This document shows positions 3,699-24,594 of a stretch of 40,425 nucleotides of DNA, one piece after another. The stretch is taken from NCBI GenBank assembly GCA_964644035.1, contig CAZXUH010000001.1, forward strand, positions 527,720 through 568,144, in the 5' to 3' direction. The number at the start of each line of letters is the position of its first letter. Position 1 is the stretch's first letter. The notes under the pieces were generated by a model, which ran no database searches, was not told the origin of the DNA, and was given only the letters and a program-made list of their open reading frames with translations. The position numbers and the translations under genes were made by a program. The DNA is from an uncultured Candidatus Saccharibacteria bacterium (GTDB lineage: Bacteria > Patescibacteriota > Minisyncoccia > Phycocordibacterales > DAORIS01).

Positions 3699-6485
3699 TT
3701 AAGTATTTAATGTTTGTTCTGGCTTTCTATATTTTTTATGAATTTCGGCCTCTATTCCCTCTCGTGGTGAACCGTACGTCAGATATGAAAGTTCTTTGAG
3801 CTTTTCCAAGAACGCTGGATCAGATTTGGTAGGAGGAAGTGTTTGAATATTAAAAGGTTTTGCTGGCTGACCATTGATCAGAAGTTTTAGATACGCATTG
3901 CGATTGTCTATATTCATAAGATCACTAGCTGTAAACACTGGTTCAAATTGTTTTTCTAGAAATTCAGCATCGGTTGCTCCGACTCTGAAAGCAGCAAATG
4001 AACCAACGTTACCAAAGACTGCATCTCGGGTCTTTTCATCAAGTTGGGCAATAAACTGATGCGCAAGGTTGAGAGATAATCGATATTTTCGAGCTTCAGA
4101 CAGGATTGTGGCAATAGACGGGGTCGTTACATTTTGGAATTCATCTATATAGAGATAGAAATCAGCGATAGGCTTACCTACAACATCTACTCTCGACAAT
4201 GCGGCCATCAGTATTTTGCCCACCAAAATAAGACCAATCAGATAAGAATTGATATCACCTAGACGACCCTTGGCCAAATTGACCAAAAGTATTTTCTTAT
4301 TATCCATGACGTCACGGAAATTGAACGAAGACTTCTCCTGCCCAATGATAGGACGCATGATATCGTTGGAAAGAAAGACGTCGAATTTTGAAGTAATGTA
4401 CGGCACCATATTTGCAAGCGACGCTTCTCCCCCAGCTTTCTCAGCTACTTCTTTCCAAAACTGCACCACAATAGGGTTGCGACATCTCGAAAGTTTGAGT
4501 TCCCTAAACTTTTTATCAGCAAGCACCCTCGATACCTCAAGCAGTGTGTTTCCTGTATCAGGATCTTCAATGACGAGCATCGTGGCGTTTCGGAAATACT
4601 GTTCGAACATTGGACCACCTGCTACTTTCATATCAAACAGTTTTTCAAAAATAGAAAGCATTTCATTGACCACAAATGTTTTCTGTTCTGGATGATCTCT
4701 ATCGTATTCGAGCATATTGAGCGCCATAGGCCGAGGAGTGTAGCTCGGATCAAAATAAATAACGTCATTGATACGTTCCTTGGGCACGGCAGCCAGAATA
4801 TCTTGAATATCAATGCCGTGTGGATCGATAAAGCAGATTCCATCGCCATTTTGCACGTCTTGAATAGCCATATTCTTGATCAAGGTCGACTTACCAGTAC
4901 CTGTCTGACCAATCGTATAGAAATGCCTCATCCTGTCCTCGCGAGTCATTTTTATAGTCGTTTCTACGCCTCTATAACTATTTATTCCTAGCGTGACACC
5001 GTCGTTTGCTAGTGCAAGAGGTGCAGGAGCACTACCAGTCTTCGTGGTGCGCAATTGTGGTGCCTGAGCACGAGCGGCAAAATGAGCTGTGGTTGCAAGT
5101 TCTCTAAGTGAAAGCGGAATACGATCACCAAAAGAAAAATTCCTGAATATAAAATCTTTCTCTAAAGCTTTGAGCTTATTTTTCTCTACCCTGTTGAATT
5201 TGAAGGTATTGCCAGAAGTATTTTCAAATTGATTGAAGGCAGATTCTATATCACTCAAAATATGCTCTGCTCTTGGGCGACTTTCTGCTGAAGCTACGAT
5301 CCTAATATTGGTCAGAACGATCTGCGATGCAATTTTGAGCTTGATCTGGTCAACTTTCTCTTGATCACCTCTTCCCAAATCCTTCTTATCATCATCTTTT
5401 TTCTTTTCATCGCTATGAAAGATCATTTCCTTGAGATCTTTGGTAAAGCTTCCAAAAAGCGTGTCTTTGATATCTATAGCATGCTTAAAAGGCACTCCTT
5501 TTTCTATTTGTTTGAGTGCATCGGTATAATGCTTATTGTATTTGTCGCCTGCCGGCTGAATGACAAACTGAAGCGCTGCCCCTTCTCCATCCTTTTGAAT
5601 CTTTGAAAAGGTATTGAGAATAATACTAGCTGGATCGTGATCGAATTGCTCGTACGTTTTTATTGGAAAGATAGGATTCCTTGCTGAAGAAGCATATGAG
5701 GCTACTGAAACACCATCGGGATTGAAGATATTGTAATCATTTGGAGTTTCATTTATTTTTGCTTCTGGATAAATAGCTAGAAGCTGCTTTTCAAGCAAGT
5801 GGGCCTTGTACGATGGCACGGAAATATAAAATACCGTCTCCAAGCTGCTATGCGTATTGGCCAATTCGAACGAGAAGTAGTTATCTTTGTCCCTCTTATC
5901 TGCTACCGAAAGCATACCCGCAAAAAACTGTTCCATACCTGCCAAGAGCTCCTTGAGAGGCTTTTCTCTGACCTCACCAGCTGTGGTGGTCTTTGCCGAC
6001 GGCGTAGACGACGGTAAAAGCACTTCAAAAAGCGTCCTGTCGAGGGCACGTTCGTATGACTTTTCTATTTTTGCTCCAGTATTGGTAACTCCATGAAAAT
6101 ATTTGACGAGAAATCTATGGAAATCATCTTCAACATGAGGATTGTTGAGCTTTTCTACTACTTCAAGAGCATTGCGTAGACCTCTCTCTTCAAAAACAGC
6201 TACCACTTCATTTAGCATTCGCTCAGGTGCATGAGAATCAATGCCAAATGCAGTGTTTTCTACTTCGTTGTGAAGCATTCTATGACCCTTTTCTAGTGTC
6301 TGATCTATGGGTTGATTGGAATACCTCTGAACTTCTTGCTTAATGAGTTGAGCTGGTATTACCTCTTCCTTCTTCTTGATCAATTCCTGCTCCTTTTTGG
6401 TTATCTGTTCCTTAAGAAAGGCAATTTCTTGCTCTGGAGTTTGAAAATAGTTTCCTTGAAGCTTACCTTCGTTCATGGAAATCAT
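3699..6485 (-). CDS. VirD4/TraD/TrwB-like (type IV coupling protein family) P-loop ATPase with a large N-terminal region of unknown function
   Basis: 928 aa. The C-terminal part has Walker A GQTGTGKST, Walker B-like FYLYIDEFQN and SLNLAHQF, as in T4CP/TraD-type ATPases. The N-terminal half has no family I can name and no obvious TM helix. Confidence 0.65.
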   Translation of the reverse strand: MISMNEGKLQGNYFQTPEQEIAFLKEQITKKEQELIKKKEEVIPAQLIKQEVQRYSNQPIDQTLEKGHRMLHNEVENTAFGIDSHAPERMLNEVVAVFEERGLRNALEVVEKLNNPHVEDDFHRFLVKYFHGVTNTGAKIEKSYERALDRTLFEVLLPSSTPSAKTTTAGEVREKPLKELLAGMEQFFAGMLSVADKRDKDNYFSFELANTHSSLETVFYISVPSYKAHLLEKQLLAIYPEAKINETPNDYNIFNPDGVSVASYASSARNPIFPIKTYEQFDHDPASIILNTFSKIQKDGEGAALQFVIQPAGDKYNKHYTDALKQIEKGVPFKHAIDIKDTLFGSFTKDLKEMIFHSDEKKKDDDKKDLGRGDQEKVDQIKLKIASQIVLTNIRIVASAESRPRAEHILSDIESAFNQFENTSGNTFKFNRVEKNKLKALEKDFIFRNFSFGDRIPLSLRELATTAHFAARAQAPQLRTTKTGSAPAPLALANDGVTLGINSYRGVETTIKMTREDRMRHFYTIGQTGTGKSTLIKNMAIQDVQNGDGICFIDPHGIDIQDILAAVPKERINDVIYFDPSYTPRPMALNMLEYDRDHPEQKTFVVNEMLSIFEKLFDMKVAGGPMFEQYFRNATMLVIEDPDTGNTLLEVSRVLADKKFRELKLSRCRNPIVVQFWKEVAEKAGGEASLANMVPYITSKFDVFLSNDIMRPIIGQEKSSFNFRDVMDNKKILLVNLAKGRLGDINSYLIGLILVGKILMAALSRVDVVGKPIADFYLYIDEFQNVTTPSIATILSEARKYRLSLNLAHQFIAQLDEKTRDAVFGNVGSFAAFRVGATDAEFLEKQFEPVFTASDLMNIDNRNAYLKLLINGQPAKPFNIQTLPPTKSDPAFLEKLKELSYLTYGSPREGIEAEIHKKYRKPEQTLNT

Positions 6486-8245: not shown

Positions 8246-9532
8246 CTAGTACTCTCTAGCTGTGAGCTGAGCGCCAACTTTCTTGAGAAGATCGAGAACA
8301 ACCGATACAACGATCAATATTGCTGTACCGCCGACTGCAAAGGTCGTGAGACTTGTCATGTGCTGCACAATATTTGGCAAAACTGCAATAATACCGAGAA
8401 AGAGTGCGCCAACGAGTGTCAAACGAATGATGATGTTGCTCAAGTGCTGCATTGTGGACTGACCGGGACGTACACCTGGGATAAATGCTCCGTTTTTCTG
8501 AAGGTTTTCTGAGATCTGATTTGGATCGAAAGTAACTGCTGTATAGAAGTACGTGAAAAGTACAACGAGTACGAAATATGCAATCGTATATACCCAGCTT
8601 GTAGGCGCGAGATGTGTCGTAACAAATGCTACCGCAGCCTGAATCTTGTCGCTCTTAGTAAGGATAAGGATGAGGTTGAGAATAACCTGAGGGAAAAGGA
8701 GCAGAGAGATTGCAAAGATAATAGGAATAACGCCAGCTTGGTTGAGACGAATAGGAAGGTATGTTGAAACACCACCGTAGACCTTGTTGCCTCGAACTCT
8801 CTTGGCATAGGTGACCGGAATGGGTCTCTCTGCTTCTGTTATATACACAACACCCGCAATAACGATAACCGCTACTGCCAAAAGACCAATATATGTTGGG
8901 ATTTGTGTAGGGTCATATGTCGTGAAGACCTGAATGAATTTCAAAGGCAAACCAGAGACGATACCGGCAAAGATAATCATCGATGAACCATTACCAACAC
9001 CAAATTCGCTGATAAGTTCTCCAAGCCAGACCAAGAAGAGCGCACCAGCAGTAATAATCGCTATGTTCAATATATAATCAAATGTCGTAAATGCACCGAG
9101 CACGCTTTGTGACTGCAAAAGCTTAATAAAGCTGAGACCTTGAATAACAGCAAGAGGAATAGTGATCCATCGTGTGTACTGCATAAACTTCCTGCGACCC
9201 ACTTCCCCATCTTCCTGATACATTTCCTTGAGCTTTGGGAAAATGATCGTCAAAAGCTGCATAATGATCGATGCAGTAATATATGGACCAACACCAAGCA
9301 TCACAATCGAAAGATTTGAAAGTCCGCCTCCTGAGAAGATATTGATAAGACCAAAGAATTGACCGAATTGATTGTTACTAAAAAGTGCCTGAAGTTTAAG
9401 TTCATCAACACCAGGAATAGGTATAGAAGCAAGAGCCCTAAATATAACGAGGGCAAAAATAGTGAAACCGATTCTCTTCAATAGATCGTTATCTTTGAAG
9501 AGCAGTGATACCTTCTCAAAAACTGTTTTCAT
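8246..9532 (-). CDS. secY: Preprotein translocase subunit SecY
   Basis: 428-aa polytopic protein with a typical SecY sequence (GLSNLSIVMLGVGPYITASII...). Positioned after rplO. Confidence 0.95.
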   Translation of the reverse strand: MKTVFEKVSLLFKDNDLLKRIGFTIFALVIFRALASIPIPGVDELKLQALFSNNQFGQFFGLINIFSGGGLSNLSIVMLGVGPYITASIIMQLLTIIFPKLKEMYQEDGEVGRRKFMQYTRWITIPLAVIQGLSFIKLLQSQSVLGAFTTFDYILNIAIITAGALFLVWLGELISEFGVGNGSSMIIFAGIVSGLPLKFIQVFTTYDPTQIPTYIGLLAVAVIVIAGVVYITEAERPIPVTYAKRVRGNKVYGGVSTYLPIRLNQAGVIPIIFAISLLLFPQVILNLILILTKSDKIQAAVAFVTTHLAPTSWVYTIAYFVLVVLFTYFYTAVTFDPNQISENLQKNGAFIPGVRPGQSTMQHLSNIIIRLTLVGALFLGIIAVLPNIVQHMTSLTTFAVGGTAILIVVSVVLDLLKKVGAQLTAREY

Positions 9533-9533
9533 A

Positions 9534-9986
9534 TTATTTATTTGCTGTCTCTATTGTACCACCCGCCTTTTCAATTTTTGCTTTTGCTTCCTTTGAGAAT
9601 GCGACGCCAGAAAATGTAAGTTTCTTTGACAATTCGCCATTACCGAGAATTTTTACTGAAATATCTCTTGATTTAAATGACTTAACAAGACCTTTTGCTG
9701 AAAGAGTTGCTGGAGAAATAGCATCGCCGGCATTGAAAACTTCATTGAGTGTGCCAACATTGACGACAAAAGCATTTTCCTGAATCGAAGTAAGAGCACT
9801 CTTACCACGACCTCGTAGCTTTGGAAGTTTCTTGATGATATCTCGCATTTCAGGACGGATCTTGCGACCAGAACGTGCTTTCTGACCTTTCATACCGCGA
9901 CCCGATGTCTTACCGCGCTTACCGCCACGGCCGACTTGCTGGCTTTTTTTATTTTTTGTTCTTGGAATAAGATTGTGTATCTGCAT
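9534..9986 (-). CDS. rplO: 50S ribosomal protein L15
   Basis: GRGGKRGKTSGRGMKGQKARSG motif. It follows rpsE directly with no rpmD in between. Confidence 0.95.
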   Translation of the reverse strand: MQIHNLIPRTKNKKSQQVGRGGKRGKTSGRGMKGQKARSGRKIRPEMRDIIKKLPKLRGRGKSALTSIQENAFVVNVGTLNEVFNAGDAISPATLSAKGLVKSFKSRDISVKILGNGELSKKLTFSGVAFSKEAKAKIEKAGGTIETANK

Positions 9987-9997
9987 GGTAGTTGAGC

Positions 9998-10612
9998 TTA
10001 TTTCTTTGAGGGATTAAGCGACTTGAGAGCCTTGAGAGCTGCCTGAGCAACGTTGAGCTGGTTCTTACTTGGAGAAACGATCTTTGCCATGACGTCCTTG
10101 ATACCTGCAAGTTCAAGTATACTTCGAGCTGCGCTGCCTGCTACGACTCCTCGTCCTGGAGCTGGCTTGATAATGATGCGTCCGCTTGAGTATTTTGCAT
10201 ACACTTCATGAGGAATAGAATTTGTCTTGGTGATAGGAATGCGAATCATGTGCTTCTTAGCATCACGAAGAGCTTTGTCGATAGCAAGAGAAGTGTCCCC
10301 TGCCTTTCCTAGACCTACACCGACTCGTCCCTTTTTGTCTCCAGCTACAAGAGCAACTGAGAAACTAAATCGTCGTCCACCGGCTACGACACGGGTTACG
10401 CGGCGAAGAGCAATGATCTTCTGTTCAAATTCTGCGCGAGGACGTTCTGCGCGAGCAGGACGATCACCACGATCACGTCGCTTTGCACCCTGACCCTGTG
10501 CACCACCTCGGCCATATGAAGGTCGGCGTGCATCGGTAGGTGCGGCAAGAGGAGCTGCTGTAGGAGCAGGCGCTGCGGCTGGTGTTGGCTGTGTGTTTGT
10601 TTCGTTATCCAT
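9998..10612 (-). CDS. rpsE: 30S ribosomal protein S5 with an Ala/Pro/Arg-rich N-terminal extension
   Basis: S5 core KIIALRRVTRVVAGGRRFSFSVALVAGD... Start set at MDNETN (ATG 10612), which avoids overlap with the rplR stop at 10617-10619. The longest ORF starts at 10654. Confidence 0.9.
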   Translation of the reverse strand: MDNETNTQPTPAAAPAPTAAPLAAPTDARRPSYGRGGAQGQGAKRRDRGDRPARAERPRAEFEQKIIALRRVTRVVAGGRRFSFSVALVAGDKKGRVGVGLGKAGDTSLAIDKALRDAKKHMIRIPITKTNSIPHEVYAKYSSGRIIIKPAPGRGVVAGSAARSILELAGIKDVMAKIVSPSKNQLNVAQAALKALKSLNPSKK

Positions 10613-15285: not shown

Positions 15286-15630
15286 TTATTTCTTTGCGTC
15301 TGTCGTAGCAACCTTGGCTGATTGTGCTGCTGCAATTTCTGCTTCTTTCTTTTTCTGTTCGAGCTCTTTCTGCATCTTACCGCCGTGCTTATTGAACTTG
15401 CGCGTGAGCGAAAATTCACCCAATCTGTGACCCACCATTTCCTCGCTTACGAGCACTTCGATATGATCCTTACCATTGTGCACGCCAAACTTAAAACCCA
15501 CCATTTCAGGAGAGATCTGGCTGCGTCGTGCCCACGTCTTAATCACCTCGGAAGTACCGGGTTTCTTTCCTTCAATCTTCTGAAGGAGACGTTCATCGAC
15601 ATATGGACCTTTTTTAAGTGATCGTGACAT
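15286..15630 (-). CDS. rpsS: 30S ribosomal protein S19 with a Lys/Ala-rich C-terminal tail
   Basis: Canonical N-terminus [13 protein letters not shown] at ATG 15630. The ORF-track start at 15651 is a GTG seven codons upstream. Confidence 0.93.
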
Positions 15631-15670
15631 ACAGTAAATAAAAGAGCTCACAGAGAGCTTGGTTTCAAAT

Positions 15671-15697
15671 ATTATATGAAGTGCCCTCTAAAGTCAA
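15671..15697 (-). promoter_or_regulatory. Candidate sigma70-type promoter for rpsS and the downstream spc genes
   Basis: On the minus strand: TTGACT (15697-15692), 15 nt, TATAAT (15676-15671), about 40 nt upstream of the rpsS ATG. The 15-nt spacer is suboptimal. Confidence 0.35.
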
Positions 15698-15746: not shown

Positions 15747-15774
15747 TTGACATAGTGTAAAAATATGATAAAAT
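15747..15774 (+). promoter_or_regulatory. Near-consensus extended -10 promoter for the inserted 321-aa gene
   Basis: TTGACA (15747-15752), 16 nt, TAAAAT (15769-15774), with TG at 15766-15767 (TGnTAAAAT). Downstream lie a 7-bp stem-loop GAAAGGG-gtgtt-CCCTTTC (15784-15802) and AAGGAGG (15836-15842) 6 nt before ATG 15849. Confidence 0.55.
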
Positions 15775-15848
15775 GTATAGGTAGAAAGGGGTGTTCCCTT
15801 TCACACTAGTTCATTGTCGTTTCTCACGAATCTATAAGGAGGCTCTAT

Positions 15849-16814
15849 ATGAGCAACCGATTCCGAAGGATCATTACCCATGTTCGACCCCATTTGGACG
15901 AGCTTTTGGCCATCAAACTGCTCTGGCAGTACGGTGGAAAAAAGTATCCTGGTATCCAGGATGCCAGCATCGAGTACTGCGGTACCGGTGAGGATCCTGA
16001 AAAGAAGTCCTGGCAACAACACTTCAATGAAGGAACCATTTTGGTCGGCGTTGGTGGCGGTCCGTTCGACGAACACCCTGCCATAACCGGCGAAGCGCGC
16101 AAGGACAAGGAGTCAGCGTGTTCTCTCGTCGCCAAAGACCTTGGTCTCGAGAAGCACCCGCTCTGGAAACAATTGGTTGACTGGGTAACCGAGTCCGATC
16201 AGACCGGAGTTCATCCTCTGCACGTTGCCAACCTCATGAAGGACGCATACCGGGTCGAGGATGACTACGCGGTTGCTATGGACCTCGGCTTCGCTATGAT
16301 CGACAGGAAGGCACGGGTTCAACAGCTTTTTTTGGAGGCACAAAAATACCTCCGAAATCTGGACGGCACCGACAGACACCACAAAATCGTCGGTCGATCA
16401 GATCGAGATCTCGATCTCGTCGTCGACGACTCTGACAACTTCCAGATTGGCGCTGCAGCTCGATCACTCAAGATTGCAATCGTCCTTCAGCGCCAACCCT
16501 CCGGCAACGTCCAGGTGTTCTGCAATTCAGATCGCTACGATTTCAAGATGACCTACGTCATCACCAAAATCAGAGAGGCAGAAATTGTCGCTCAGGGCGG
16601 CAGCAAGAATTCCGCCAGGGCAATTCCTTTTGAAGAATTGTCTCGGGCTGGGAAAATTCCCCAGGTTCCAAACTGGTTTTACCAGATTCCTGGCGAAAAT
16701 CTGCTGAACGGTAGTGAATCCACTCCGGACACAAAACCCACCAAAATCCCCTTCGACAAACTCATCAAGATCGTTCACACCAACCTCTTTGCTGAGTCGG
16801 CTGTTGCGGCTTAG
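15849..16814 (+). CDS. Orphan protein with MYG1/UPF0160-like (DHH-superfamily metal-dependent hydrolase) motifs, inserted antisense in the rplB|rpsS junction
   Basis: 321-aa ORF with a strong SD, its own promoter and its own terminator. Motifs in MYG1 order: ITHVRPHLDELLAIKLL (compare THNGTFHCDEALACALL), VGVGGGPFDEH (compare DVGG.YD...DHH), IAIVLQRQPSGNVQVFCN (compare FVIYTDQAGQWRIQCV) and IPQVPNWFYQIPGENLLNG (compare IPGCIFVHASGFIGG). Family assignment is by eye only. Confidence 0.8.
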   Translation: MSNRFRRIITHVRPHLDELLAIKLLWQYGGKKYPGIQDASIEYCGTGEDPEKKSWQQHFNEGTILVGVGGGPFDEHPAITGEARKDKESACSLVAKDLGLEKHPLWKQLVDWVTESDQTGVHPLHVANLMKDAYRVEDDYAVAMDLGFAMIDRKARVQQLFLEAQKYLRNLDGTDRHHKIVGRSDRDLDLVVDDSDNFQIGAAARSLKIAIVLQRQPSGNVQVFCNSDRYDFKMTYVITKIREAEIVAQGGSKNSARAIPFEELSRAGKIPQVPNWFYQIPGENLLNGSESTPDTKPTKIPFDKLIKIVHTNLFAESAVAA

Positions 16815-16831
16815 TCAGATTGCGAGAAACG

Positions 16832-16861
16832 AAAAACCCCACACATTATGTGGGGTTTTTC
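16832..16861. terminator. Bidirectional rho-independent terminator shared by the inserted gene (+) and rplB (-)
   Basis: aaaaa-CCCCACA-catta-TGTGGGG-ttttt lies between the stop at 16814 (+) and the stop at 16873 (-). It reads as hairpin plus U-run on both strands. Confidence 0.75.
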
Positions 16862-16872
16862 TATACCTTGAT

Positions 16873-17727
16873 TTAAACTGTCTCTTTCTTTTTCTTTCCA
16901 ACCTTTCGTCGAGAAACGATAAGTGAGTTTGAGTATTTCTTTGCTCGGCGTGACTTCTGTCCCTTTCCAGTAGGTTTGCCGTAGATAGATTTTGCTCGGC
17001 GTGTACCTCGTCCCTGTCGGCCTTCACCACCACCATATGGATGATCCACAGGGTTCATAGCTGTACCACGAACTGTAGGACGAATACCCAACCATCGGCT
17101 GCGTCCAGCTTTACCCATAATTACGAGTCGGTTTTCATCGTTTGAAACTTCACCGATCGATGCCCATGCAGCATCAGGAATCTTGCGAACTTCAGATGAA
17201 GGAAGTTTGACGTGTGTCATACCAGCATCCTGAGCAATAACTTCGGCATAGTTGCCTGCTGAACGGCCTATTTTACCGCCACCTTGAGGCTTGATCTCTA
17301 CGTTGTATACAAAGGTGCCAACTGGAATATTTTTGAGAGGAAGACGATTACCAGGTTTTACTTCTGCCTTTTCAGAAACCATAAATGTGTCCCCTACCTT
17401 GAGAGACTTTGGAAGAAGAACGTATCGCTTCTCACCATCAGAATACTGAGCAAGGGAAATAAATCCTGTTCGGTTTGGATCGTATTCAACGCTAACAATT
17501 TTTGCTGAGACATTCTTTTTATTGTAGACGAAATCGATTTCACGATAGAGACGCTTGTGACCTGAACCCTTGTGTCGTGTGGTGATGCGGCCTGTATTGT
17601 TTCTTCCAACATCGCGCTTGCGACCAAATGTAAGAGCCTTGTAAGGTTCGTTGGATGTAATGATATCTCGGTATGAAATACCTGAATAGTTTCTTCGAGA
17701 TGGACTTGTTGGTTTGTAGTGCTTCAT
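16873..17727 (-). CDS. rplB: 50S ribosomal protein L2
   Basis: 284 aa: GRNNTGRITTRHKGSGHKRLYR...HPYGGGEGR. Confidence 0.95.
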   Translation of the reverse strand: MKHYKPTSPSRRNYSGISYRDIITSNEPYKALTFGRKRDVGRNNTGRITTRHKGSGHKRLYREIDFVYNKKNVSAKIVSVEYDPNRTGFISLAQYSDGEKRYVLLPKSLKVGDTFMVSEKAEVKPGNRLPLKNIPVGTFVYNVEIKPQGGGKIGRSAGNYAEVIAQDAGMTHVKLPSSEVRKIPDAAWASIGEVSNDENRLVIMGKAGRSRWLGIRPTVRGTAMNPVDHPYGGGEGRQGRGTRRAKSIYGKPTGKGQKSRRAKKYSNSLIVSRRKVGKKKKETV

Positions 17728-21314: not shown

Positions 21315-21872
21315 TTAGGATCCGTAGGCAATCAATGTCTTTAGTATATCCGACTGATTGAGGCATTTTTGAGACGTCGTCTTGAAATATCCCTTATCGA
21401 GCAAAGCCACATATATACCCGTTCTGAGTATTGGATTGACCCCTGCATCTGACAACATAGTATTAAGTTCATTAGATGTACAAATTTTTCCGTCTTTTCC
21501 ATAGGTAGTGACTACATGATTGGCAACTGCAGCAAAATCAATCTCCCCTTTTGAGTTTATGAGTTTGTTTATTCTGAGTATTTTTTGCAGATTTCTGACA
21601 GTATCTTGTATTTCTTGATCACCAATTATCTTAAATGAAGTGCACGGGATTATTTTTGTCGACGTGCTTTGTATATAAATAGCGCAATTGGTTTCTGTCT
21701 TTACTACATATATACCATTGTGCTGATTGCTGTTGAGCGCAGCAATAGCAGAAGCTTCTGATGCAGCATTGTGCGTAAGTGCATCTGCATCGATCTTAGA
21801 GAGAGTAAAAGTCGTAGCGACAATTCCAACAATTGCAATAATCGTATAAGCCAGTAACGGATTGATTTTCAT
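21315..21872 (-). CDS. Hypothetical membrane-anchored or secreted protein between fusA and tuf
   Basis: 185-aa ORF with an N-terminal hydrophobic helix (LLAYTIIAIVGIVATTF) and 5 Cys in the ectodomain. It is AT-rich like the host. I recognise no family. Confidence 0.5.
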   Translation of the reverse strand: MKINPLLAYTIIAIVGIVATTFTLSKIDADALTHNAASEASAIAALNSNQHNGIYVVKTETNCAIYIQSTSTKIIPCTSFKIIGDQEIQDTVRNLQKILRINKLINSKGEIDFAAVANHVVTTYGKDGKICTSNELNTMLSDAGVNPILRTGIYVALLDKGYFKTTSQKCLNQSDILKTLIAYGS

Positions 21873-24177: not shown

Positions 24178-24519
24178 TCAAGAAACTATCCTTATTTTCG
24201 CATTCGCATTGTTTTGTCGAGCAGCATCTAGATATTCTCTTGTAGTTCTATCAGAAGCTATTTTTTCGGATTCGCAGATATCAATCAGTTTTTCGATTGC
24301 ATCAATATCATCTATATCCTGTGCATGAGATGATGCATATTCAAGATAATCCATTATTTGCCTCAAAACCTGTCGCTTGCGTTCTGTATCGTCTTCCGGA
24401 GTAAGTACAGTGAGTTTCTCAATATAATATTCTATCTGTGATGCAATTGAATTGCCTTCATTATTGCTTTCTATGTTTTCATTCTCCCCTCCCGCTGTAA
24501 GTGTATCTTGATTTTCCAT
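24178..24519 (-). CDS. Hypothetical small acidic protein between rpsG and fusA
   Basis: Start set at MENQDTL (ATG 24519), because the longer ORF (24570) would run through the rpsG terminator hairpin. The 113-aa product is Glu/Asp-rich and probably helical. No family recognised. Confidence 0.45.
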   Translation of the reverse strand: MENQDTLTAGGENENIESNNEGNSIASQIEYYIEKLTVLTPEDDTERKRQVLRQIMDYLEYASSHAQDIDDIDAIEKLIDICESEKIASDRTTREYLDAARQNNANAKIRIVS

Positions 24520-24535
24520 AATAAGTTTATTATAG

Positions 24536-24562
24536 CAAAACTGCCGAGAGTGTCTCGGCAGT
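24536..24562 (-). terminator. Rho-independent terminator downstream of rpsG
   Basis: On the minus strand: CTGCCGAGA-cac-TCTCGGCAG followed by TTTTGC. A TATAAT follows 2 nt after that. Confidence 0.65.
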
Positions 24563-24594
24563 TTGTGCATCTAGATACAATGAATTGTATCGAA

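Follow-up and report, generated by a model that had tools for sequence, protein, structure and literature searches.

P0001, a 321-amino acid protein encoded between rplB and rpsS in the genome of an uncultured Candidatus Saccharibacteria bacterium, is only remotely related to the MYG1 exonucleases, as judged from comparisons of alignment profiles, and is not itself a MYG1 member. Profile searches further indicated that it represents a large and distinct family centred on Patescibacteria, which is so far unnamed in Pfam and NCBIfam. Its gene lies in a stretch of 40,425 nucleotides (positions 527,720 to 568,144 of contig CAZXUH010000001.1; hereafter the window) holding a minus-strand ribosomal super-operon with the str genes (S12, S7, EF-G and EF-Tu), the S10 and spc genes, SecY, Adk and Map; the source genome amounts to 741 kb in two contigs, and its proteins have their closest named relatives in Patescibacteria. 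On balance, we consider it probable that P0001 is an acquired metal-dependent phosphoesterase of the DHH type with a remodelled metal centre.

Profile comparisons made use of three alignments: a seed of 11 relatives including P0001, obtained through a word-based search (A1; the other ten sequences were 33–72% identical to P0001), a set of 83 family representatives, on which all conservation counts given below are based (A3), and 31 MYG1 sequences (A4). Alignment of A3 to A4 using hhalign returned a probability of 92.9% (E = 3.8e-7, score 57.3) across 179 colinear columns, which start at the N-terminus, take in the linker helix and reach the first strand of the C-terminal domain (C-domain). Controls scored far below the real value of 57.3, with 15.7 for the reversed A4 and at most 22.4 in 20 column shuffles. 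When only four MYG1 sequences were used, the probability was 77.4% (E = 1.9e-5). By comparison, 20 RecJ sequences of related genomes gave a probability of just 0.16% against A3, and MYG1 against RecJ gave 1.4%. Positions paired in the A3–A4 alignment included TH-xRPHLDE with THNxRFHADD, G67VGG with D47VGG, FD74-E75-H76 with FD60-H61-H62 and D117 with D112.

Family membership in the strict sense was not supported. A canonical MYG1 gene, coding for 291 amino acids, is present in the same genome (G000:C1:42063-42920; L001 1495-2370) and matched PF03690 with 248 bits, whereas P0001 did not reach the cut-off of 22.1 bits, and a direct BLASTP comparison of the two proteins yielded an unconvincing best E-value of 0.026 over 26 residues. 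No matches to PF01368 (DHH), PF02272 (DHHA1) or PF03690 were obtained for P0001, for any of 11 close relatives (E ≤ 10) or for any of 86 representatives (E ≤ 0.01). The MYG1/UPF0160 homology proposed in the initial annotation was upheld as a remote relationship, through profile comparison and a DHH/DHHA1 fold, but not as PF03690 membership; Pfam profile searches gave zero UPF0160 or DHH matches, while the predicted fold was of the DHH/DHHA1 type. A separate observation concerns the rarity of canonical MYG1/UPF0160 genes, which were seen in only four of the 121 sampled genomes of the phylum. In one locus (L069), a family member adjoins a 258-amino acid protein (5036-5809, minus strand) matching positions 1–66 only of the MYG1_exonuc model (57 bits), the product of a divergent or truncated MYG1-like gene.

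The relationship could be followed by sequence in the N-terminal half of the protein, which holds the N-terminal domain (N-domain). Alignment of the C-domains alone (P0001 family versus MYG1) gave a probability of 1.5%, which leaves the equivalence of C-terminal motifs suggested in the initial annotation undetectable at this level. The best local pairing of the C-domains (SDNxQ...ARS with CHNxRF...A.S) was rejected as not colinear. Language-model leads in the Atlas pointed to MYG1_exonuc clusters with both the whole protein and the C-domain, the latter with a score of 0.87, below the 0.9 line. The tie of the C-domain to MYG1 is one of predicted fold and language-model lead only.

An AlphaFold2 model of P0001, built from the 11-row alignment (predicted local distance difference test (pLDDT) score 88.6, predicted template modelling (pTM) score 0.83), has a two-domain DHH/DHHA1 fold, in which a predicted alpha/beta DHH domain is joined by a long linker helix to a DHHA1-like domain. 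Among the matches listed in a Foldseek search of PDB, only DHH/DHHA1-family proteins were found, nine of them at E ≤ 1e-3. The best E-value belonged to PggH (7d62; E = 1.2e-4, probability 1.00), and further matches included RecJ, NrN, NrnA, GdpP, PAP phosphatase, family II pyrophosphatase and the uncharacterised protein 6mtz. Top matches in BFVD were viral DHH phosphohydrolases (best E = 2e-6). The four PDB chains ranked highest (6mtz_B, 5ghr_A, 7bhi_A and 7d62_B) were identical for the models of P0001 and of the genome's genuine MYG1. Crystal entries of MYG1 (24ah and others) were judged to lie outside the fold-search targets, since the genuine MYG1 model failed to find them, and their absence from the fold matches is uninformative. 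No paper describing a MYG1 structure was found among the papers that were searched.

The same fold matches hold a side observation. The uncharacterised Helicobacter pylori G27 protein 6mtz was the best structural match of both P0001 and genuine MYG1, and it was found by neither family profile in a PDB sequence search. Its domain arrangement differs from that of P0001 (root-mean-square deviation of about 17 Å, ~10% identity), and it may represent a further branch of the P0001/MYG1 group.

P0001 and MYG1 thus share the DHH plus DHHA1-like architecture, the order of secondary-structure elements and the best PDB matches. Canonical DHH/DHHA1 phosphoesterases (NrnA, PggH, GdpP, RecJ, PAP phosphatase and family II pyrophosphatase; PF01368/PF02272) share both domain folds with P0001 as well, but no match to them was seen at the sequence level, and P0001 retains their DHD, D, DHH and GGGH motifs only in part. 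In canonical DHH enzymes such as family II pyrophosphatase, NrnA and RecJ, the motif II Asp bridges two metals, and the His residues of the DHH motif take part in metal binding and catalysis.

Four segments had been pointed out in the initial annotation as occurring in the same order as in MYG1 proteins. All of them are present in that order in the ORF and are conserved among the family representatives beyond chance: T10-H11-x3-H15-x-D17-E18-x-L-A21-x2-L24-L25; V68-G-G-G-x-F73-D74-E75-H76; I211VLQRQPSGNVQVFC225, which forms a beta hairpin in the model (strands at 211-215 and 221-225); and I270P...F277..I280PGE..L.N287G288. Conservation in the N-domain was high at H11 (73 of 83 representatives), H15 (77), D17 (82), E18 (72), G67 (83), D74 (81), E75 (81), H76 (83) and D117 (83), and in the C-domain at R242 (81), E245 (83), W276 (82), N287 (83), G288 (81), S289 (71) and T298 (76).

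Several features of the DHH superfamily are retained. The acidic/His cluster of motif I is kept, with H11, H15 and D17 aligning to H6, H11 and D13 of MYG1, as is the motif IV Asp, D117; in common with MYG1, the protein also has the TH...H.DE..A pattern of motif I, the GG after motif II and the F-D-x-H of motif III. Differences from MYG1 are equally consistent across the family. Gly stands in place of the motif II Asp in every representative (G67, 83 of 83), and the middle position of motif III is Glu in 81 representatives and His in one, so that the replacement of DHH by DEH, reported in the initial annotation, is a hallmark of the family. P0001 is one residue shorter than MYG1 in motif I and six residues shorter between motifs II and III, which agrees with its earlier description as a compacted form locally but not overall, given its total length of 321 amino acids versus 291 in the genome's own MYG1. 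No His is conserved in the C-domain of the 83 representatives, which have instead a conserved N287-G288-S289 loop. The C-terminal His of MYG1 (H344 in human, H267 in the genome's own protein) occurs in all 31 MYG1 sequences and lies within FCHN in bacterial members. The earlier statement that the C-terminal His of the FVHASGF motif is missing is consistent with the family's lack of a conserved C-domain His, the MYG1 His itself having no alignable position there.

This pattern fits rebuilding under conservation better than decay: the acidic and His residues that are left, together with polar C-domain residues, are near-invariant, which favours an enzyme over a pure binding protein. Conservation is enzyme-like in that polar residues are kept in both domains. 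Catalysis, metal stoichiometry and substrate class are what we infer from these residues and the predicted fold. The substrate would carry a phosphate, candidates being nucleotides, short oligonucleotides and nucleic-acid ends, and would bind in the interdomain cleft, with H11/H15/D17(E18), D74-E75-H76 and D117 serving as the metal ligands that have been kept. Because the metal-bridging Asp of motif II is an invariant Gly, the site would probably hold a single metal or use another kind of bridge. In place of the GGGH/FVHASGF His, R242, E245, W276, N287-G288-S289 and T298 of the C-domain may contact the substrate.

A second, likewise remote kinship, not considered in the initial annotation, was found with ChrB_C, the C-terminal domain of the regulator ChrB that also occurs in ChrF-like proteins. 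Alignment of A3 to eight ChrB_C sequences (the C-terminal part of pMOL28 ChrB1, a pMOL28 ChrB-domain protein and six plasmid homologues) gave an hhalign probability of 94.9% (E = 4.3e-8, score 57.2) over 127 columns, matching the N-domain of the family to the whole ChrB_C domain (positions 3–132 of 141). The reversed control scored 15.5 and 20 shuffles reached at most 20.4, versus 57.2 for the real alignment. Significance was obtained only with the eight-sequence alignment, the single ChrB1 sequence giving a weak match (probability 0.9%). Searches with HMMER for PF09828 (cut-off 25 bits) detected weak matches in four of 86 representatives, one of them above the cut-off (P0044, 29.6 bits), and none in P0001 itself; a separate family member had an 18-bit ChrB_C match, and an Atlas cluster near P0001 carries ChrB_C on 12% of its members. 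Probabilities for MYG1 against ChrB_C (0.35%) and RecJ against ChrB_C (0.4%) were negligible. As the profiles of MYG1 and ChrB_C both match the P0001 family but not each other, the family sits between the two as a bridge, with an N-domain that is at least as close to ChrB_C as to MYG1 and is the closest relative detected for ChrB_C.

Aligned features shared with ChrB_C comprise the motif I Asp, the motif III F-D, a C/S-A stretch and the motif IV Asp, which is conserved in ChrB_C. Unlike P0001, ChrB_C consists of just one domain, some 130 amino acids long, usually following ChrB_N and without a DHHA1-like domain, and it has no equivalents of H11, H15 and H76 in the profile alignment. ChrB_N or a DNA-binding domain was not found in P0001, nor was a chromate transporter (ChrA in chr operons) among the window genes or the neighbours of 39 homologue loci. 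The C-terminus of ChrB was called rhodanese-like in 2013 (PMC3817168). Among the papers that were searched, none connected ChrB with DHH, and none of the matches listed for UPF0160 dealt with bacterial relatives.

When a profile of these 11 seed relatives was compared with 1.84 billion representatives, it matched 1756, 1400 and 702 clusters at E ≤ 1e-3, 1e-10 and 1e-30, respectively. Searches of Pfam and NCBIfam with P0001 gave zero matches at E ≤ 10. PHROGs and PADLOC yielded nothing for P0001 or for nine of 11 other representatives, the remaining two having a single weak and unrelated PHROGs match each, and sequence searches of PDB with P0001, A1 and A3 produced chance-level matches only (antibody, CTPR, histone H1, REV1 and EGFR). 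The 62 family loci obtained from a scan of genome contigs were mostly labelled as Patescibacteria groups or Saccharibacteria, the rest being a few WOR-3 and three 'Gammaproteobacteria' metagenome-assembled genomes. Among 41 related genomes, 12 (including the source genome) had a family member, while genomes of the same genus (G001) and the same family (G002) did not. Many members are longer than P0001, at 400–500 amino acids, and match the profile in two stretches owing to an insertion between the N-domain with its linker and the C-domain (e.g. P0028, P0036, P0046 and P0057, and members in genomes G004, G005, G008, G014, G027 and G031).

The ORF itself is a real, horizontally acquired and self-contained gene of foreign composition: its GC content is 0.523 and its third-position GC content (GC3) 0.606, compared with a GC3 of 0.32–0.47 in neighbouring genes and a GC content of 0.42 in the window. 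It is accompanied by its own putative signals (Table 1), for which we infer promoter and terminator functions from their sequence. The hairpin downstream of the ORF has a predicted RNA folding energy of −22 kcal/mol (z = −5.99), a value equalled by none of 200 shuffled sequences; since it lies 17 nt past the stop codon of the ORF and 12 nt past that of rplB, it could terminate both converging transcripts.

Table 1. Positions, in window coordinates, of the P0001 gene, its flanking genes, candidate expression signals and encoded domains and motifs
Feature	Position	Strand	Remarks
Coding sequence of P0001, 321 amino acids, ATG start	15849..16814	+	Lone ORF between rplB and rpsS
rpsS (S19), flanking gene	15286..15651	-	78.6% identical to the Pfam Ribosomal_S19 protein of locus L004 (G040)
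rplB (L2), flanking gene	16873..17727	-	Named from sequence; matches rplB region of G001, G002 and G003
Shine-Dalgarno sequence AAGGAGG	15836..15842	+	6 nt before ATG; read from sequence
Putative sigma-70-like promoter, TTGACA-16 nt-TAAAAT, TG before -10	15747..15774	+	11/12 matches to consensus
Putative promoter-like site, TTGACT-17 nt-TAATAT, facing rpsS	15669..15697	-	Weak, 9/12 matches
Putative bidirectional intrinsic terminator, hairpin with 13-nt arms, flanked by A-run and T-run	16831..16861	.	Arms 100% complementary
N-terminal DHH-like domain, residues 1-155	15849..16313	+	
Motif I equivalent, T10-H11-x3-H15-x-D17-E18	15876..15902	+	Aligned to MYG1 THNxRFHADD
Motif II/III region, V66-G67-V-G-G-G-P-F-D74-E75-H76	16044..16076	+	Aligned to MYG1 D47VGG and FD60-H61-H62
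D117, motif IV Asp equivalent	16197..16199	+	Aligned to invariant MYG1 D112 (IDAxDNG) and conserved ChrB_C Asp
C-terminal DHHA1-like domain, residues 157-321	16317..16811	+	Without conserved His

The junction occupied by this gene varies considerably between related genomes. The gap between rplB and rpsS, 1.2 kb in the window, measures about 4 kb in the same-genus genome G001, where it is filled by four unrelated ORFs on one strand (L042 1677-5545, G001:C14), of 380 amino acids with an NYN domain and of 213, 331 and 196 amino acids without a family. In the same-family genome G002 it is about 505 bp long and free of ORFs, and in G003 about 100 bp. Remnants of the P0001 gene were not found in these three junctions by tblastn (no match, or E = 1.7). 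Homologues elsewhere were examined in 71 loci, nine from related genomes and the 62 of the contig scan, and tblastn of eight S10-operon proteins of the window produced a match in only one of them (L004/G040). This genome, from another family of the same order, carries a 34%-identical homologue (L107 7907-8863, minus strand) just upstream of rpsS-rplV-rpsC and divergent from it (9128-10598, plus strand; G040:C17), and rplB is absent within 7 kb upstream, the S10 operon thus being split in that genome as well.

Gene neighbourhoods were surveyed in 39 homologue loci (40 were taken, one of which was dropped as its ORF could not be delimited). No conserved partner gene emerged from the 146 neighbouring ORFs, and no family occurred in more than three loci. 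ParA-type ATPase, PAP2, SSB and class-V aminotransferase were the most frequent, with three loci each; RNase III, SMC and NusB-NUDIX neighbours were seen in two loci each, plus once more in a locus of G018.

Two further kinds of observation were made in the window. The ORF lies between the arms of a 12-nt inverted repeat (TTGTCGTTTCTC / GAGAAACGAAAA; 15814-15825 and 16824-16835), and the 3' end of rplB holds a 13-nt direct copy of the right repeat arm (16910-16922); these repeats could be the trace of an insertion event but are near what chance would give, by a rough estimate about two such pairs per 1.5 kb. Elsewhere in the window, the str operon contains two ORFs without a Pfam family on the operon strand, one of 130 amino acids between rpsG and fusA (24178-24570, minus strand) and one of 185 amino acids between fusA and tuf (21315-21872, minus strand), and an ORF of 928 amino acids downstream of map/adk (3699-6485, minus strand) had no Pfam family at E ≤ 1e-5.

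Several points weigh against the interpretation of P0001 as a phosphoesterase. Catalysis is a prediction, and neither Pfam nor NCBIfam offers a curated family for the protein. The bridging Asp is Gly in every representative, Glu takes the place of the first DHH His in 81 of 83, and the His of DHHA1 and MYG1 appears to be missing. In human MYG1, mutation of the DHH triplet (residues 106-108) abolishes activity, and the H344Q change replaces RNase by single-stranded DNase activity (PMC6582341). ChrB_C, the nearest sequence relative of the N-domain, belongs to a regulator or sensor and to no known enzyme (PMC3817168). DHH-fold proteins without catalytic activity (Cdc45 and the C-Ala domain of AlaRS) were among the fold matches, the neighbouring genes gave no hint of a substrate, and the G040 homologue, likewise divergent upstream of rpsS, keeps a link to the ribosome alive.

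A rival explanation is a non-catalytic ligand-binding or sensor protein, whose N-domain, like ChrB_C, would hold a tetrahedral oxyanion or nucleotide and not hydrolyse it, the DHHA1-like domain serving for binding or dimerisation, as it does in Cdc45 and C-Ala. ChrB_C gave the strongest of the profile matches, PF09828 matches and the Atlas cluster point the same way, the motif II Asp is lost and the DHHA1 His apparently so, Cdc45 and C-Ala are among the fold matches, and ChrB is a chromate-responsive regulator whose induction depends on R180, R187 and H229 in its C-terminus (PMC3817168). However, H15, D17, D74, E75, H76 and D117 are each retained in at least 77 of the 83 representatives, which is more than ChrB_C keeps in the profile alignment, P0001 has no DNA-binding or ChrB_N domain, and no conserved regulated partner gene is adjacent; we regard a non-catalytic binding or sensor role as unlikely.

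The position of the gene invites two further explanations. The initial annotation saw a notable association in an RNA-processing nuclease placed within a ribosomal operon, and an RNA exonuclease of MYG1 type with rRNA or ribosome assembly as its target, functionally tied to the operon, would agree with the relatedness to MYG1 in profile comparisons, with the 3'-5' RNA exonuclease activity of human MYG1 on rRNA and mitochondrial RNA (PMC6582341), with the homologue beside rpsS-rplV-rpsC in G040 and with RNA-metabolism genes next to homologues in several loci (RNase III, RNase HII, RNB, YbeY and S1). Such neighbours, however, are expected anyway in genomes this small, and S10-operon genes flank only one of the 71 loci. 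The gene is compositionally foreign, lies on the opposite strand with its own putative signals and is missing from same-genus and same-family genomes, whose junctions hold unrelated cargo or none. A canonical MYG1 is already present in the genome, and the His conferring RNA preference in human MYG1 (PMC6582341) has no recognisable conserved counterpart. The association proved weak in this light, and we consider a ribosome-directed exonuclease very improbable.

Scarcely easier to accept is an origin as cargo of a small mobile element or as a phage-derived moron (for instance, a phosphodiesterase that counters defence or degrades nucleotide signals) with the rplB-rpsS spacer as its place of entry, an explanation we judge quite improbable. 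The foreign GC3 and patchy distribution would suit it, as would Atlas neighbour clusters in which Uroviricota is the commonest phylum label, the many viral DHH phosphohydrolases of the same fold in BFVD, the inverted repeats flanking the ORF and the different 4-kb cargo, including an NYN-domain protein, in the same junction of a sister species. On the other hand, PHROGs and PADLOC gave no support beyond the two weak, unrelated matches, no integrase or transposase was found in the window region, the repeat is short enough for about two such pairs to be expected by chance in 1.5 kb, and most homologues reside among housekeeping genes.

For the acquired phosphoesterase, which we continue to prefer, the location would then reflect an insertion-prone junction: the best reading of rplB-rpsS is that of a hotspot in this lineage rather than of a ribosomal role, and the association with the ribosome is probably incidental. 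A broader and bolder scenario, which we hold only tentatively and with low confidence, is that the P0001 family is an evolutionary bridge, that the 'chromate sensor' ChrB_C is a stripped-down DHH domain, that the family uses a new DHH-type site (Gly for the bridging Asp, DEH, and an Asn-Gly-Ser loop for the DHHA1 His) for a phosphate or oxyanion ligand outside those of known DHH enzymes, and that insertions recur in the rplB-rpsS spacer of this lineage and divide the S10 operon.

Collectively, these results place a family of at least 1756 clusters, concentrated in the tiny genomes of Patescibacteria, in the DHH superfamily, beside MYG1, and this placement points to definite residues for mutagenesis and substrates for assays. 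The link between MYG1 and ChrB_C suggests that the ligand-sensing domain of a chromate regulator derives from a phosphoesterase fold, and the otherwise rigid S10 operon can, in this lineage, be broken up at one junction through the entry of foreign genes.

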